IMG/VR virus record: IMGVR_UViG_2744054976_000007
Location: 1 to 6,182 of that record
Direction: 5' to 3' (one strand)
From: a virus
Lineage: Duplodnaviria; Heunggongvirae; Uroviricota; Caudoviricetes
DNA length: 6,182 nucleotides
Below the pieces are notes generated by a model that did not search any database, was not told where the DNA came from, and saw only the letters and a program-made list of their open reading frames with translations. Position numbers and translations under genes: made by a program. Below are positions 1 through 6,182 of this stretch, piece by piece (position 1 is the stretch's first letter; each line of letters starts with the position of its first letter).

Positions 1-560
1 AGCGCAGCTTCCTCGGCAACAGCGGCAGGAAATTCCGCGAAGGCGGCAAAAACGTCCGAGACGAACGCTAAGTCTTCTGAAACAGCAGCGGGACAGAGCG
101 CCTCAGCTGCGGCAGGTTCAAAAACAGCGGCTGCGTCGTCTGCCAGTGCTGCGTCAACAAGTGCCGGGCAGGCCTCAGCCAGTGCCACCGCTGCCGGAAA
201 ATCGGCAGAAAGCGCCGCATCATCCGCTTCAACAGCCACAACGAAGGCTGGCAGCCACTGAGCAAGCCACTGCAGCAGCGAGGTCTGCTTCTGCAGCAAA
301 AACCTCTGAAACAAATGCAAAGACTTCAGCAGACAATGCTGCTTCCTCTAAGGCGGCAGCCGCATCGTCCGCTGGTTCAGCGGCGTCATCGGCATCATCT
401 GCGTCTGCTTCAAAAGATGAGGCGACCAGACAAGCGTCAGCAGCGAAAGGTAGTGCCACGACAGCAACAACGAAAGCATCAGAGGCGGCAGGCAGTGCGA
501 CGGCTGCATCTCAGAGCAAAGTTGCTGCTGAATCCGCGGCAACGCGTGCCGAAACAGCGG
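1..560 (+). repeat. Quasi-repetitive Ala/Ser/Thr-rich coding repeats (KTSETNAK-type) of the tail-fibre shaft
   Basis: Reiterated gcngcn/tcngcn codons give repeated AAKTSETNAK and SASAA motifs in the translation. This low-complexity region also explains the spurious overlapping ORFs on both strands (68..265, 229..459, 348..563, 315..701). Confidence 0.5.
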
Positions 561-2062
561 CAAAACGGGCAGAGGATATTGCTGATGCCGTATCTCTGGA
601 AGATGCGAGTACGACGAAAAAAGGTGTGGTTCAGCTCAGTAGCGCCACTAACAGCCCGTCTGAAACGCTGGCTGCGACACCAAAAGCGGTTAAGGCGGTA
701 ATGGATGAAACGAACAAGAAAGCGCCCTTAAATAGTCCTGCACTGACCGGAACGCCAACAACGCCAACTGCGCCAAAAGGTACTAATAATACTCAGATCG
801 CAAGTACGGCTTATGTGATGGCCGCGATTGCCGCCCTTGTAGACTCGTCGCCTGACGCACTGAATACGCTGAACGAGTTAGCGGCGGCGCTGGGCAACGA
901 CCCGAATTTTGCGACCACCATGACTAACGCGCTTGCGGGTAAGCAACCGAAAGATGCCACCCTGACGGCGCTGGCCGGTCTTGCTACTGCGGCAGACAGG
1001 TTTCCGTATTTTACGGGGAATGATGTCGCCAGCCTGGCAACCCTGACAAAAGTCGGGCGGGATATTCTTGCGAAATCGACCGTTGCTGCCGTTATCGAAT
1101 ACCTCGGTTTACAGGAAACGGTAAATCAGGCTTCTGGCGCATTACAGAAAAACCAGAACGGCGCAGATATTCCGGGAAAAGATACCTTCACCAAAAACAT
1201 TGGTGCCTGCCGCGCATATAGCGCATGGCTGAATATTGGTGGCGATAGTCAGGTCTGGACAACTGCGCAATTTATTTCGTGGCTGGAGAGTCAGGGGGCA
1301 TTTAACCATCCTTACTGGATGTGCAAAGGCTCATGGGCTTATGCAAATAATAAGGTTATTACAGATACAGGTTGCGGAAATATTTGTCTTGCAGGTGCTG
1401 TGGTGGAAGTTATTGGCACTCGCGGCGCAATGACCATACGCGTTACTACGCCGAGCACGTCCAGCGGTGGCGGAATTACTAACGCTCAATTCACTTATAT
1501 TAATCATGGTGATGCTTACGCTCCTGGCTGGCGACGAGACTACAACACGAAAAACCAGCAGCCTGCATTTGCTTTAGGGCAAACAGGACGCAGGGTCGCA
1601 AATGATAAAGCTGTTGGCTGGAACTGGAATAGCGGTGTTTATGATGCAGATATCAGTGGTGCATCGACATTAATCCTCCACTTCAATATGAATGCGGGGA
1701 GTTGCCCTGCTGTACAGTTCCGCGTGAATTACAGGAACGGCGGTATTTTTTATCGTTCAGCGCGTGATGGTTATGGCTTTGAAGCTAACTGGTCAGAGTT
1801 TTACACCACAACACGCAAACCCTCTGCGGGGGATGTTGGTGCATATACGCAGGCAGAATGTAACTCAAGGTTTATTACAGGTATTCGCCTTGGCGGTCTG
1901 TCATCTGTTCAGACATGGAAAGGCCCCGGCTGGTCTGACAGGTCAGGTTATGTCGTTACGGGTTCAGTTAACGGAAACCGTGATGAATTAATTGATACAA
2001 CTCAGGCAAGGCCAATTCAGTATTGCATTAATGGGACGTGGTATAACGCGGGGAGTATTTAA
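1..2062 (+). CDS. Side tail-fibre protein (constant region plus variable C-terminus Sv); 5'-partial at the window edge and interrupted by an apparent 1-nt frameshift near 250-261
   Basis: Frame +1 from nt 1 reads SAASSATAAGNSAKAAKTSETNAKSSETAAGQSASAAAG...STATTKAGSH and stops at 259-261. Frame +2 (the 146..2062 ORF in the track) continues with the same motif type (EQATAAARSASAAKTSETNAKTSADNAASS...) and is open to the stop at 2060-2062. The frame +2 translation upstream of ~250 is Pro/Gln/Arg-rich and unlike a fibre, so the true gene changes frame there. Downstream are a conserved fibre domain (KKGVVQLSSATNSPSETLAATPKAVKAV...AAVIEYLGLQETVN) and a variable C-terminus ending PIQYCINGTWYNAGSI. Family assignment is from recalled lambda Stf / Mu S / P1 S / e14 Stf proteins. 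Confidence 0.85.
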   Translation, partial: AQLPRQQRQEIPRRRQKRPRRTLSLLKQQRDRAPQLRQVQKQRLRRLPVLRQQVPGRPQPVPPLPENRQKAPHHPLQQPQRRLAATEQATAAARSASAAKTSETNAKTSADNAASSKAAAASSAGSAASSASSASASKDEATRQASAAKGSATTATTKASEAAGSATAASQSKVAAESAATRAETAAKRAEDIADAVSLEDASTTKKGVVQLSSATNSPSETLAATPKAVKAVMDETNKKAPLNSPALTGTPTTPTAPKGTNNTQIASTAYVMAAIAALVDSSPDALNTLNELAAALGNDPNFATTMTNALAGKQPKDATLTALAGLATAADRFPYFTGNDVASLATLTKVGRDILAKSTVAAVIEYLGLQETVNQASGALQKNQNGADIPGKDTFTKNIGACRAYSAWLNIGGDSQVWTTAQFISWLESQGAFNHPYWMCKGSWAYANNKVITDTGCGNICLAGAVVEVIGTRGAMTIRVTTPSTSSGGGITNAQFTYINHGDAYAPGWRRDYNTKNQQPAFALGQTGRRVANDKAVGWNWNSGVYDADISGASTLILHFNMNAGSCPAVQFRVNYRNGGIFYRSARDGYGFEANWSEFYTTTRKPSAGDVGAYTQAECNSRFITGIRLGGLSSVQTWKGPGWSDRSGYVVTGSVNGNRDELIDTTQARPIQYCINGTWYNAGSI
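1092..1117. other. Left crossover site of the Din-type invertible segment (gix/pix-like 26-bp site) inside stf
   Basis: TTATCGAATACCTCGGTTTACAGGAA at 1092-1117 matches the recalled gix/hix/pix-type site. The reverse complement of 4145-4170 is TTATCTAAAACCTCGGTTTACAGGAA, a 24/26 match. Extended inverted repeat 1092-1131 versus 4131-4170 is 35/40 identical with a perfect 25-bp core (1101-1125 / 4137-4161). The site encodes VIEYLGLQE at the constant/variable boundary; the predicted exchange point is the central dinucleotide 1104-1105. Confidence 0.75.
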
Positions 2063-2064
2063 CG

Positions 2065-2598
2065 ATGATGCACTTAAAAAACATTACTGCTGGCAACCCT
2101 AAAACAAAAGAGCAATACCAGCTAACAAAGCAATTTAACATCAAATGGCTTTATTCAGATGATGGAAAAAACTGGTATGAGGAACAAAAGAATTTCCAGC
2201 CAGACACTTTGAAAATGGTCTATGACCATAACGGCGTTATTATTTGTATTGAAAAGGATGTTTCAGCAATTAATCCAGAGGGTGCAAGCGTCGTTGAATT
2301 ACCTGATATTACAGCAAATCGCCGGGCTGATATTTCGGGGAAATGGATGTTCAAAGATGGCGTAGTGATAAAGCGAACTTATACCGAGGAAGAGCAGAGG
2401 CAACAAGCGGAAAATGAAAAGCAAAGCCTGTTGCAACTTGTCAGGGATAAAACCCAGCTATGGGACTCACAGCTACGGCTGGGCATCATTTCCGACGAGA
2501 ATAAACAAAAATTAACCGAGTGGATGCTCTATGCGCAGAAAGTCGAATCTACAGACACTTCCGGCCTGCCAGTAACGTTTCCCGAACAACCAGAATGA
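2065..2598 (+). CDS. Tail-fibre assembly protein (Tfa chaperone) for the Sv fibre tip
   Basis: 177-aa ORF beginning 3 nt after the stf stop, with GGAG about 8 nt upstream. N-terminus [40 protein letters not shown] is typical of the phage Tfa/U family and about 70% identical over ~120 aa to the convergent ORF at 2627..3154. Confidence 0.9.
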   Translation: MMHLKNITAGNPKTKEQYQLTKQFNIKWLYSDDGKNWYEEQKNFQPDTLKMVYDHNGVIICIEKDVSAINPEGASVVELPDITANRRADISGKWMFKDGVVIKRTYTEEEQRQQAENEKQSLLQLVRDKTQLWDSQLRLGIISDENKQKLTEWMLYAQKVESTDTSGLPVTFPEQPE

Positions 2599-2602
2599 GA
2601 GA

Positions 2603-2629
2603 AGGCCCGCTATCGGGCCTTAATTTTTA
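2603..2629. terminator. Putative bidirectional rho-independent terminator between the convergent tfa genes
   Basis: AGGCCCG-CTAT-CGGGCCT (2603-2620) forms a 7-bp GC-rich stem with a 4-nt loop, followed by TAATTTTTA on the + strand and a pyrimidine-rich stretch on the - strand. It lies in the 28-bp gap between the two tfa stop codons. Confidence 0.5.
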
Positions 2630-3154
2630 CTCTGGTTTTTGTGGCCATTCAGGATTTGCCGTATCCACACGGCTGGCCAGAACACTGTAGCGTTCCCATG
2701 CTTCCAGTCGTGTGCGTTCCTCGTCTGTTGCCATATTCAGCCTGACAGCGCGTTCCAGCGGTTGGATGACTGATTCAGCTTCGGAAAGCAATGCGGCCTT
2801 TTGTGATTCGGCCTGTTGTTGTTGCTCGTCTGCCGTATAAATCCGTTTAACCACAGCTCCGTCCCTAAACATCCACTTACCGGAATCATCAGCGCAGCGG
2901 TTGGCTGTAATATCTGGAACCTCAACGACGCTATAACCTTCAGGGTTAAGCGTGGAGGCATCTTTGGTGATGGCGACAATAATATTATTTGCATCGTAAA
3001 CAATCTTTATTGTGTCTGGCTGAAAGTTTTTCACTTCCTCATACCAGTTTTTTCCGTCTTCGGACCATAACCAGATAACATCAAAATTCTTTGTTAGCTG
3101 ATATTGTTCTTTTGTTTTTGGATTTCCAGACTTAATATTTTTTAAATGCTGCAT
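2627..3154 (-). CDS. tfaE: Tail-fibre assembly protein (Tfa') paired with the alternative fibre tip Sv'
   Basis: 175-aa [57 protein letters not shown]...; matches my recollection of E. coli e14 TfaE. Position and orientation (immediately downstream of Sv' on the - strand) fit the Mu U' / e14 tfaE arrangement. Symbol is from memory, not a search. Confidence 0.9.
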
Positions 3155-3157
3155 AAA

Positions 3158-4120
3158 TTACACCTGTACGACGTTATACCATGTGCCATTGATGTATTTT
3201 TGTATTGGTCTGAATACTGCCGGATCATCGCCATCAACTGCACCGATAATGCCAAGCCCCGTAATTGCATGACCTGATTTCTCATACATCACGCCTTTTT
3301 GCATAGTCTGAACAACACGTGTACCAAGTCGGACATCTCTCACATAACGTGAGTCAAAATTACCATAATTGCCGGGAATAACTTGCGCACCGCAAAGCCA
3401 GTTGCCATTGTTGTCCATGTACGCCTGACCATCGGTGCCATTGGCTGTCCTTGAGTTATTAATCATGTAGATGCCAAATTGCTTATTCCCCAGTCCACCA
3501 ATCATAAATTTGCGATCAGCGTGGTCCTGACGAAGTAATGCCTGCGCACCATCGGTGGATACCGCATTGCGTCCCAAAATAACATTCTGGTCACGCATAT
3601 GAATCCACATGCCGGTACTACTGTTAATTGCAAAACGGTTTGCAAATATATCCCCTGTAACATCAAGACCATGCCCCATGCTTATCCGACCAGTTCTGAG
3701 ATTAAGCGTAAAGGGGCGTAGTGGCCCTATATCACCATTTTCTCCCTCATTCTCTCGTGTAGGGATGATATGCAGGCATTCTTCAGAACGACGAAAAATA
3801 GCACCAAAAGATGAATTAAATATCCTCAGTGCATTGACTGTCGATATTTTTACTTCACTGCTGAAAAGGGCTTTAACAAGGACAGACAAAGCATCCCATT
3901 TAAGAGTCATCAGGTCTTTTGTTGTGGTGCTCTGGCGGCTTCTCCATTTGAAATATTCATTGCCGTTGTCGCCTGTTTCAAACCACATGTATGAATCAGT
4001 GTCGCTGTCGGCATTATTTTTAAAACCAATCTTTGCCCAGTCAGTATTTCTAATCCAGGCAAGGATTGAGTCGTTTTCAAAAGTAAGCCCACCGGACAAG
4101 GTATCGCCATTCTTTTGCAC
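3158..4120 (-). CDS. Alternative tail-fibre C-terminal segment (Sv'), start-less and expressed only after inversion fuses it to the stf constant region
   Basis: Open frame on the - strand from the in-frame stop at 4163-4165 down to the stop at 3158-3160; the track starts it at a GTG (4118-4120). After the crossover site it reads LGLQETVNRARNAVQKNGDTLSGGLTFEND..., sharing LGLQETVN with the + strand fibre, and ends PIQKYINGTWYNVVQV (compare PIQYCINGTWYNAGSI). No SD or start of its own; the real coding extent probably begins at the crossover (~4157). Confidence 0.8.
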   Translation of the reverse strand: MQKNGDTLSGGLTFENDSILAWIRNTDWAKIGFKNNADSDTDSYMWFETGDNGNEYFKWRSRQSTTTKDLMTLKWDALSVLVKALFSSEVKISTVNALRIFNSSFGAIFRRSEECLHIIPTRENEGENGDIGPLRPFTLNLRTGRISMGHGLDVTGDIFANRFAINSSTGMWIHMRDQNVILGRNAVSTDGAQALLRQDHADRKFMIGGLGNKQFGIYMINNSRTANGTDGQAYMDNNGNWLCGAQVIPGNYGNFDSRYVRDVRLGTRVVQTMQKGVMYEKSGHAITGLGIIGAVDGDDPAVFRPIQKYINGTWYNVVQV

Positions 4121-4144
4121 GGCGTTCCTGGCCCTGTTTACCGT

Positions 4145-4170
4145 TTCCTGTAAACCGAGGTTTTAGATAA
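4145..4170. other. Right crossover site of the invertible segment (gix/pix-like), inverted relative to 1092-1117
   Basis: TTCCTGTAAACCGAGGTTTTAGATAA; see left site. The two mismatches lie in the outer half-site, and an in-frame TAA sits in that outer half on the - strand reading. Confidence 0.75.
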
Positions 4171-4224
4171 TGGCGGTTTCTGGCCTGCATGGCATGATTT
4201 GTGCTTTTGGACGGGAGATTCAGC

Positions 4225-4515
4225 GTGCTGATTGGCTATGTAAGGGTATCAACAAATGACCAGAATACAGACCTGCAACGAAACGCTCTTGTTTGTGCAG
4301 GATGTGAACAAATATTTGAAGATAAATTAAGCGGAATAAGGACAGGCCGACCTGGATTAAAACGTGCTTTAAAGCGCCTTCAAAAAGGTGACGCACTGGT
4401 TGTCTGGAAACTGGACTGACTGGGTCACTGTATGCGGCATCTTGTCGTGCTGGTGGTGGAAGCCTGGAAGAAGTATCGGGTGTTGCTGAACCGTGTTGAT
4501 ACGTCAACTGCACAG
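4225..4515 (+). pseudogene. pin: Din-family DNA invertase (Pin/Gin/Hin-like serine recombinase) remnant: premature stop after codon 65, 3' part decayed and deleted
   Basis: From GTG 4225: LIGYVRVSTNDQNTDLQRNALVCAGCEQIFEDKLSGIRTGRPGLKRALKRLQKGDALVVWKLD then TGA (4417-4419). Recalled Gin/Pin proteins continue WKLDRLGRSM...; here the Arg codon position is TGA. The next ~30 codons still read [15 protein letters not shown]...NRVDTSTAQ (compare LGRSMKHLISLVGEL...TDSIDTSSP) before homology stops near 4515. The track's 4201 start is an upstream in-frame GTG. Confidence 0.8.
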
Positions 4516-4639
4516 GATATTGAATGGCCAGCACTGCCGTAGGGTAAAACATATAAATTCTATAATTAGATGTATCTTTCCATTTACGGCAAGGAAGGGG
4601 GCTTGGAAGACGTAAAGCATCTCACACTGAGATTATTTT

Positions 4640-5230
4640 TTATATGTCAGGTGTCTGAAGTTTTGCTTTGGCTCTTAAAATGGTTTGCCGCGAGGTTTTG
4701 AATTCCCGGGCAATGGCACTTATACTTACACCTGACTTAATTCGTTCGAATACCACCTGTTTCTGTTCTTCATTTAACACAGGTAGTCGACCAAAACGTT
4801 TCCCTGCGCCGCGGGCTCTTACTATCCCGGAATGAGTGCGTTCAAGTAAAAGGTCTCGTTCAAATTCAGCGACTGCTGAAATTACTTGCATCATCATTTT
4901 TCCTGTTGGACTGGTCAGGTCAATGCCAGCCAATGCTAAGCAATGCACTCTGATACCTGTTTCGGTCAGTTGTTCCACTGTTTTCCTGATATCCATTGCA
5001 TTACAACCAAGGCGATCCAGTTTTGTCACAATCAATTGATCACCACATTTCAGGCGAGCAAGCAACCGGTTAAAACCAGGACGCTCACTGGTTGCTGCTG
5101 AGCCGCTAATGTGTTCTTCGATTATTTGCTGAGGTTTGATTTTAAAACCTGCACTTTCGATTTCCCGGCGTTGATTTTCGGTGGTCTGATCCAGCGTTGA
5201 TATCCGACAGTAAGCAAAAATTCGAGACAT
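4640..5230 (-). CDS. Small serine recombinase (resolvase/invertase family), intact, not the cognate Din invertase
   Basis: 196-aa [25 protein letters not shown]... with the catalytic-serine motif (RISTLDQ), the KLDRLG motif and a C-terminal resolvase-type HTH ([23 protein letters not shown]). Only distantly similar to the pin remnant. Weak SD (GAG about 9 nt upstream). Confidence 0.9.
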
Positions 5231-5546: not shown

Positions 5547-5780
5547 TTACATTTTACCATTTAAATTTTGGTTGTCTTTAAGAACTGATATCGCTGTTTG
5601 TAATAATTCTTTGTTATCCAGCCATGATTTTTTCTTTATGTTTCCTTCAATGTAATCAAGCAATGTTCTGGTATTGATAGGTCTTCCCTGTTTTGCTACT
5701 TCCACTACAGCATTCCCTAGGATAATTCTTACTTCAGGAAGCTGCGCAGGGAACCACTTTAGGGTGTCTTTTGATTTCAT
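5547..5780 (-). CDS. Hypothetical small protein (77 aa from the SD-supported ATG; 88 aa if the upstream ATG at 5813 is used)
   Basis: ORF MKSKDTLKWFPAQLPEVRIILGNAVVEVAKQGRPINTRTLLDYIEGNIKKKSWLDNKELLQTAISVLKDNQNLNGKM. AAGGAA lies 7-8 nt upstream of the ATG at 5780, whereas the ATG at 5813 has no SD. Same strand as, and 316 bp upstream of, the recombinase gene. No family recognised. Confidence 0.5.
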   Translation of the reverse strand: MKSKDTLKWFPAQLPEVRIILGNAVVEVAKQGRPINTRTLLDYIEGNIKKKSWLDNKELLQTAISVLKDNQNLNGKM

Positions 5781-6182
5781 GAAGATATTCCTTAAAATAT
5801 TATTGATTTTCATTGCGATATTGTATGTCTGATTCAGGATATGTTGACTTATACATCGGTTTTGTCTGGGTTATTGGATATGCCAATCCCTAATTTTATT
5901 AGGGCATAACTAAAAATGCTGAATATGATAAGGAGAGATGTGATTATCAGTATGCTGTTCATATAGCCTCGAATTAGTAATGTGTTATATATGATATAGT
6001 TGACAATTTTTATCTTGGGTGTTCTTAAAGTTCGTAGATAAACATTGTCGTTTCAGGTATACAGGAATGCTAACAGGTGGCAGCAAAAATCAGGCGGTTT
6101 ATGGCGCAAGCTGAAGCGGCAACTGCAAACTATCTTATGCAGAGACTCTACACAGATTGGGTTTAAAAGTATACATAGATAA

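Follow-up and report, generated by a model that had tools for sequence, protein, structure and literature searches.

The truncated gin-type invertase gene of this prophage, the recombinational enhancer sequence that it still carries and two gix-like crossover sites probably form a complete set of cis elements for DNA inversion, on which an invertase supplied in trans, most likely a Fis-activated member of the Din family, would act; we give this reading a probability of about 0.78. In the proposed mechanism, the 5′ stump of a Mu/P2-type gin gene would retain, as a sequence-identical copy, a Fis-dependent enhancer which, with the sites at 1092-1117 and 4145-4170, would provide the full cis elements for a G-segment-type inversion of the adjoining tail-fibre cassette. 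As the cognate enzyme is dead, catalysis would have to come in trans, most likely from a gin-, pin- or cin-type enzyme encoded by a co-resident prophage or plasmid; this enzyme would bind to both sites, and Fis bound in cis at the enhancer of the stump would activate it.

The window, i.e., the whole stretch of 6,182 nucleotides that was analysed, is the tail-fibre end of an E. coli Rac/Qin-like cryptic prophage (Table 1). In genomes with the same sequence, the RefSeq gene order runs trkG ... stf, tfa, tfa′, stf′, a small ‘recombinase family protein’, a tfa fragment, pinR, ydfK, ynaM, uspF, ompN. The invertible cassette is 3.05 kb long and has a Sv-U / U′-Sv′ layout; the alternative C-terminus Sv′ lacks its own start and would be expected to be expressed solely after inversion. 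In the window, stf differs from the copy of strain ES1 and from other intact copies by a 2-bp deletion (GA absent between 252 and 253, in the area 244-262), and in the alignment to ES1 the incoming frame stops at 259-261; judged from this alignment, stf is a pseudogene in the window. As the gene is frameshifted, flipping of this particular copy may yield no protein change. At the other end of the window, an 88-aa open reading frame at 5547-5813 (minus strand), for which a Pfam match is absent, corresponds to the cold-shock-like ydfK/ynaE gene, the RefSeq product of which is shorter (77 aa).

Table 1. Features of the window (coordinates are those of the window).
Feature	Position	Strand	Remarks
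Lambdoid side tail-fibre gene stf, constant N-terminal/shaft part	1..1091	+	Pfam Phage_fiber_2; RefSeq ‘prophage tail fiber N-terminal domain-containing protein’; open at the left window edge
Left crossover site, gixL-like, TTATCGAATACCTCGGTTTACAGGAA	1092..1117		26-bp core; central TC at 1104-1105; ES1/ES6 and E1433/E8 inversion breakpoints inside
Variable tail-fibre C-terminus Sv	1118..2062	+	ORF 146-2062; gp37_C match; joined to the constant part in the window orientation
Tail-fibre assembly gene, U-like, partner of Sv	2065..2598	+	Pfam Caudo_TAP, E = 2.2e-36
Alternative tail-fibre assembly gene, U′-like	2627..3154	-	Pfam Caudo_TAP, E = 3.6e-37
Alternative tail-fibre C-terminus Sv′	3158..4144	-	ORF 3158-4120; Gp34_trimer match; RefSeq ‘phage tail protein, missing N-terminus’
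Right crossover site, gixR-like, TTCCTGTAAACCGAGGTTTTAGATAA	4145..4170		26-bp core; central GA at 4157-4158; one base off Mu gixR
Gin-type invertase remnant	4225..4419	+	GTG start, 64 sense codons, TGA at codon 65
Stretch homologous to the recombinational enhancer (sis)	4243..4314		Codons 7-30 = nt 19-90; collinear with the P1 cin and P7 features
Proximal Fis 15-bp core (predicted), TATCAACAAATGACC	4247..4261		Y-R steps at -4/-3 and +3/+4, C at +7; register validated on hin
Distal Fis 15-bp core (predicted), GTGCAGGATGTGAAC	4295..4309		Fits GNNYRNNWNNYRNNC; centre 48 bp from the proximal centre
Same-frame tail of the remnant: pinE-like invertase piece (to ~4457), then the last ~27 codons and stop of a tfaR/tfaQ-type gene	4420..4542	+	Caudo_TAP, E = 4.6e-12; RefSeq tail-fibre assembly annotation
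PinR/PinQ-type serine recombinase, intact, 196 aa	4640..5230	-	Resolvase and HTH_7 domains; annotated pinR; 220 bp from the stub

The cassette is bracketed by inverted-repeat arms of 38 nt (1088-1125 and 4137-4174) that are 92% complementary and have an identical core of 22 bp in common. Two inverted 26-bp sites with complementary central TC/GA dinucleotides thus surround alternative C-termini and assembly genes, which is the arrangement of a Din-type segment. The right site is the same in the intact P2-like prophage locus of strain MSI001 (L095).

The invertase remnant that follows the right site is a Resolvase N-terminal domain (PF00239, E = 3.5e-18) whose GTG start is native, Mu gin likewise beginning with GTG. 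Its protein is 93.8% identical to residues 1-64 of Mu Gin and its DNA 96.9% identical to nt 1-192 of Mu gin, with 100% identity over the first 112 nt; more broadly, the interval 4130-4415 shows 93-96% nucleotide identity to the gin regions of Mu, D108, SfMu and related phages and P2-like prophages, and this homology ends at 4415. An origin from an e14 pinE-type gene was ruled out, pinE being just 76% identical over the enhancer stretch. Codon 65 is an Arg codon in intact genes and TGA in the stub. The ~13 invertase codons past this TGA (4420 to ~4457) are 84% identical to pinE versus 52% to Mu, and the matches to tfaQ/tfaR begin at window position ~4451-4458. On its 4417-4542 side, the stub is therefore a three-part mosaic made of gin-type sequence to 4415 plus the TGA, pinE-like sequence to ~4457 and a tfa 3′ end. 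The junction at ~4451-4460 falls within a TGGTGG/TGGAAG-rich stretch, which suggests short-homology joining, and the TGA and the tfa fusion are common to all copies examined, which indicates that these copies descend from one event. The segment thus has no intact cognate invertase beside it, the gene being stopped at codon 65 and its remainder replaced by the tfa 3′ end. The closest intact E. coli relatives of the stub are the invertases of P2-like prophages and not Mu gin (strain MSI001, L095 4827-5414); they flank a closely similar Sv-U / U′-Sv′ cassette, and their 3′ third is unlike that of Mu gin.

The position of the enhancer within such genes is known from annotated phages. In the GenBank record of P1 (AF234172), the enhancer of Cin inversion is annotated at cin nt 19-90 (31678-31749), and the P7 record has the equivalent feature at nt 19-86; for Mu, the enhancer is reported within the invertase gene (Kahmann 1985, as cited in PMC3798978). 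The enhancer of the window was placed by gapless alignment of the invertase genes over this region to the P1 feature. The stretch so delimited (4243-4314) is identical at 72 of 72 positions to Mu gin and also to the gene of the intact 195-aa P2-like prophage invertase of E. coli MSI001; identity amounts to 76% with P1 cin, 76% with e14 pinE and 68% with a Salmonella hin. Between the right crossover site and the enhancer, there are zero indels relative to Mu.

High-affinity Fis sites are characterised by pyrimidine-purine steps at +/-3-4 (PMC4784862). The register of the two predicted Fis cores was chosen for these steps and checked on the hin gene of S. enterica subsp. diarizonae, in which, with the chosen register, the proximal core begins 99.5 bp from the centre of hixL and the core centres are 48 bp apart; the published values for hin are a native hix-enhancer spacing of 99 bp and a distance of 47 bp between Fis-site centres (PMC3798978). 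With an earlier register that placed the proximal core at G22-C36 of the gene, the centres were 49 bp apart; it was abandoned for the one lying one base rightward, which fits both the pyrimidine-purine steps and the published hin numbers. In the window, the proximal core begins 89.5 bp away from the centre of gixR; this is exactly 10 bp, or one helical turn, less than in hin and the same as in Mu. Three Fis sites are described in the cin enhancer. A third loose match to the Fis consensus, GACCAGAATACAGAC, lies at 4258-4272 in the window, between the two cores and overlapping the end of the proximal one. The degenerate two-site Fis pattern occurs once in the window against 0.18 expected, a count of one being reached by 28 of 200 shuffles, and single-site matches show no excess over chance (8 in the window versus 11 expected). 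The degenerate motif is thus weak when taken alone, and the case for the enhancer rests on identity to Mu, homology and spacing. A 5′ coding location ~90-100 bp from a crossover site, two predicted Fis sites 48 bp apart and homology to a mapped enhancer are the attributes of a Din enhancer, and Fis would be expected to bind here. Such an enhancer is also bent by Fis and promotes inversion in cis; for a role of this kind at the stub, the precise inversions in stub-carrying lineages speak indirectly.

The preliminary description of this DNA had proposed that the first ~195 bp of a pin gene were intact and that the Fis-dependent enhancer might survive in this 5′ coding region, to be recognised by a pair of Fis sites at the conserved spacing. 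The 5′ remnant at 4225-4419 is real, albeit of gin and not of pin type, and it is not simply cut at codon 65: a TGA stands there, and ~13 pinE-like codons and then the tfa 3′ end continue in frame beyond it. Alignment of 4225-4419 to Mu gin and Salmonella hin bears out the remainder: the enhancer of P1 cin, at nt 19-90, maps well 5′ of codon 65, its equivalent in the window is the same as Mu at 72 of 72 positions, and the two predicted cores are present at the spacing found in hin.

A cis-acting function can leave a trace at synonymous positions. In codons 7-30 of 62 unique Hin-like genes drawn from many Enterobacterales, the synonymous entropy of four- and six-fold degenerate codons is 1.24 bits, as compared with 1.74 elsewhere (one-sided Mann-Whitney p = 0.016); this reduction is most marked at the proximal site, where the synonymous codons of Ser9 (0.21 bits) and Thr10 (0.32 bits) are near-fixed. 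This family-wide dip lends independent support to a candidate cis element at this location. The stub variants of other genomes carry substitutions within the 72 bp at 4260, 4272, 4285, 4304 and 4305, at a density approximating that of the rest of the stub; among these variants, there is no signal of purifying selection on the enhancer, in a comparison of low power, and hence no sign of selection keeping it.

Evidence on whether the segment inverts comes from its distribution across E. coli. The search covered 5,426 complete genomes and used orientation-specific queries spanning the stub/tfa fusion; loci with an intact gene cover only 79% of the query and were excluded from the junction counts. 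The right junction, stub/tfa fusion included, was recovered from 97 genomes in the orientation of the window and from 58 in the flipped one, and the stub module is present in at least 155 complete E. coli genomes. With a query for the whole structure (1 kb of constant stf, the cassette and the stub), both orientations are again found, at 98.5% identity or more; in the best 60 rows, the records that run through the stub number at least 41 in the window orientation and at least 33 in the flipped one. At least four chromosomal contexts harbour the module, each in both orientations: the Rac prophage with pinR (TUM9868 versus 1217KP), the bioA side (ES1 versus ES6), the vicinity of potB (E8 and E1739 versus E1433 and E1620) and an ompW-side prophage (S9 versus GN04171). 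The recurrence of the stub/tfa fusion in these contexts indicates that recombination has carried the module from one lambdoid prophage to another.

ES1 and ES6 differ by an inversion with breakpoints within the repeat arms; they were set aside as a clonal pair on account of scattered SNPs, E1433 and E8 being cleaner. In the latter two strains, the flanks are 100.000% identical with zero mismatches over 4,618 bp upstream and 10,392 bp downstream, and the 3.1-kb segment between them is inverted. The inverted block contains four mismatches, all of them at outer half-site positions that stay in place, as predicted for exchange at the centres of the sites; there is no other difference over more than 18 kb, and the enhancer is the same as that of the window. 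The inverted loci all carry the same dead gene, which implies that inversion postdates the loss of the enzyme and that an enzyme acted in trans. Wild-type Din invertases require the enhancer in cis (PMC3798978); an enhancer in cis is thus the expected requirement in these inversions as well, hyperactive variants or RecA-dependent exchange at the 22-bp repeat cores being possible ways around it. Some copies have undergone further rearrangement. In SCZE5 (L006 3533-5009), the cassette was flipped and later half deleted, so that trkG is directly followed by tfa(-), Sv(-), the right site and the stub; this copy has lost the constant part of stf, the left site, Sv′ and tfa′. In another copy of the stub locus, IS1 interrupts the cassette.

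Candidates for the trans-acting enzyme are found in several carriers. MSI001 and UID2404240038 contain the stub locus together with an intact gin-type P2-like locus, and the right crossover site and the enhancer of the intact MSI001 locus are the same as those of the window. When the 3′ halves of pinE, gin and cin were added to the query and the matching places compared (at megablast sensitivity, on the chromosome record only), their number rose from 4 to 6 in E1433, from 2 to 4 in E1620 and from 2 to 3 in 1217KP, and other genomes behaved likewise. At this sensitivity, no extra pinE-, gin- or cin-type 3′ sequence was detected on the chromosomes of ES6, PEC1003, PSS-13 and cM2a, all of which are flipped; in these strains, either an enzyme not detected in this search acts or the orientation was inherited. 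The lack of any other detectable Din invertase on some flipped chromosomes would suit a different enzyme, namely the neighbouring PinR/PinQ-type recombinase, which could flip the segment whether or not it uses the gin enhancer; in that case, one invertase would have been exchanged for another and the term orphan would not apply to the locus. We regard this as unlikely. PinR is intact and close to the stub, and its near relative PinQ (99% identical), when overproduced, is reported to invert the e14 P segment in trans (2025; PMC12529663). Against these points, PinR is just 34% identical to Hin and has a divergent DNA-binding domain. Invertases that depend on Fis and the enhancer uniquely conserve Gln151, Arg154 and Leu155 of Hin and basic residues at positions 47, 48 and 51 (PMC3798978). 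Gin, Cin and PinE retain these signature residues; in the alignment, PinR has Val, Glu and Arg at the first three positions and Asn, Arg and Ala at the others, where a single helix-B position out of three is basic. A PinR devoid of Fis-contact residues sits uneasily with the reported inversion of the e14 P segment by PinQ/PinR (PMC12529663). Furthermore, stub loci without an adjacent pinR (bioA side, potB and ompW side) are also found in both orientations, and a pinE deletion mutant is locked in spite of the presence of pinQ and pinR (PMC12529663). The latter point has to be read with care: the enhancer-equivalent stretch corresponds to codons 7-30 of pinE (K-12 e14, pinE 3186-3740), and deletion of the whole gene thus removes the enhancer too, so that a locked P segment does not by itself show which enzyme is needed. 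The enzyme favoured here would be a canonical Din invertase from another prophage or a plasmid, with PinR as a minority rival. The notion of a trans-complementable orphan switch, complete in cis and lacking its enzyme, as advanced in the preliminary description, is supported but calls for a qualification. Both gix-like sites and the enhancer sequence are present next to a dead cognate gene, the stub flanks the segment in either orientation and E1433/E8 document a precise inversion; the word ‘orphan’, however, leaves out of account the intact PinR (4640-5230) and the Din invertases that some carriers hold elsewhere in their genomes.

Slightly less probable than a role of PinR is that the enhancer is a passive relic of the deletion endpoint and had no part in the origin of the two orientations; these could have come from RecA-dependent exchange between the 38-bp repeats, for instance, or from a cassette swapped in from a co-resident P2-like prophage. 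Substitutions in the enhancer are not depleted among the stub variants, intact P2-like prophages hold a closely similar cassette (92-96% nucleotide identity) and are possible donors, and the 22-bp identical core of the repeat arms could in principle allow homologous exchange. An identity of 22 bp is, however, at the lower limit for RecA-dependent exchange, which counts against this explanation, as does the recurrence of inversion in at least four contexts with breakpoints always within the 26-bp sites and outer half-sites unmoved. The sameness of E1433 and E8 over more than 18 kb outside the inversion argues against the import of foreign DNA, and the requirement of wild-type Din invertases for an enhancer in cis also speaks against an idle relic. 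A quite different view, about as improbable as the passive relic, would have the stub kept as a supplier of the enhancer in a phase-variable locus domesticated at the level of the host, which would have spread through cryptic lambdoid prophages and be driven by any resident invertase, possibly including PinR/PinQ. If this were true, the output of the locus could be receptor-masking tail-fibre chimeras, which have recently been linked to phage defence.

None of the components of the preferred reading, inversion in trans on an enhancer retained by a gin stump, amounts to a new mechanism: it is already known that the enhancer lies within the 5′ part of the invertase gene, that the two Fis sites have a fixed spacing and that invertases of this kind can complement one another. 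What is new is modest and consists of a naturally truncated gene that persists as an enhancer-bearing stub, is spread over several prophage contexts and adjoins a segment that has recently inverted in near-clonal strains. Gene callers tag such a stub as a small “recombinase family protein” or as a pseudogene, while its real content would be a cis-regulatory element, and the 3-kb cassette of these cryptic prophages still looks flippable by enzymes encoded elsewhere. Catalogues of invertible DNA that rely on a nearby invertase would overlook such loci. In invertase knock-outs, deletion of the whole gene takes the enhancer with it, which affects the interpretation of such mutants. These considerations also bear on recent claims that inversions of prophage tail-fibre genes protect cells from phage.

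Among known systems, the G segment of Mu is the closest in its right crossover site (bar one base), in the spacing between site and gene, in nt 1-112 of the gene and in its Sv-U / U′-Sv′ logic. It differs in that the invertase of the window ends at codon 65 and is fused to a tfa 3′ end, in that the cassette sits here on the lambdoid side tail-fibre gene of cryptic prophages (Rac and others) and in that the constant part of this tail fibre is unrelated to Mu S. The C segment of P1/P7 and its cin gene have the enhancer at nt 19-90, gapless and collinear with that of the window at 76% identity; by comparison with the window and Mu, where the enhancer is ~90 bp from the site, that of P1 lies at the end of the gene away from the adjacent cixL, and the enzyme is intact. 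The Salmonella hin gene, with its 65-bp enhancer, resembles the stub in having two Fis cores 48 bp apart in the 5′ coding region, ~100 bp from the nearest crossover site, at 68% identity; the distance between site and enhancer is 10 bp shorter here, Hin flips a promoter and not tail-fibre ends, and its gene is intact. The enzymes Gin, Cin, Hin, Pin and Fin are well known to complement one another: Fin of Fels-2 acts on the H segment, and Pin complements both Gin and Hin. The trans-acting Din invertases Fin, Pin and PinQ (for PinQ, see PMC12529663) thus provide the nearest functional parallel, in which an enzyme from elsewhere flips a segment equipped with its own sites and an enhancer in cis. 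In those systems, the segment has an intact invertase gene of its own or lost it at the hands of the experimenter; at the locus described here, the gene has been truncated naturally, and the truncated form is found in several prophage contexts.
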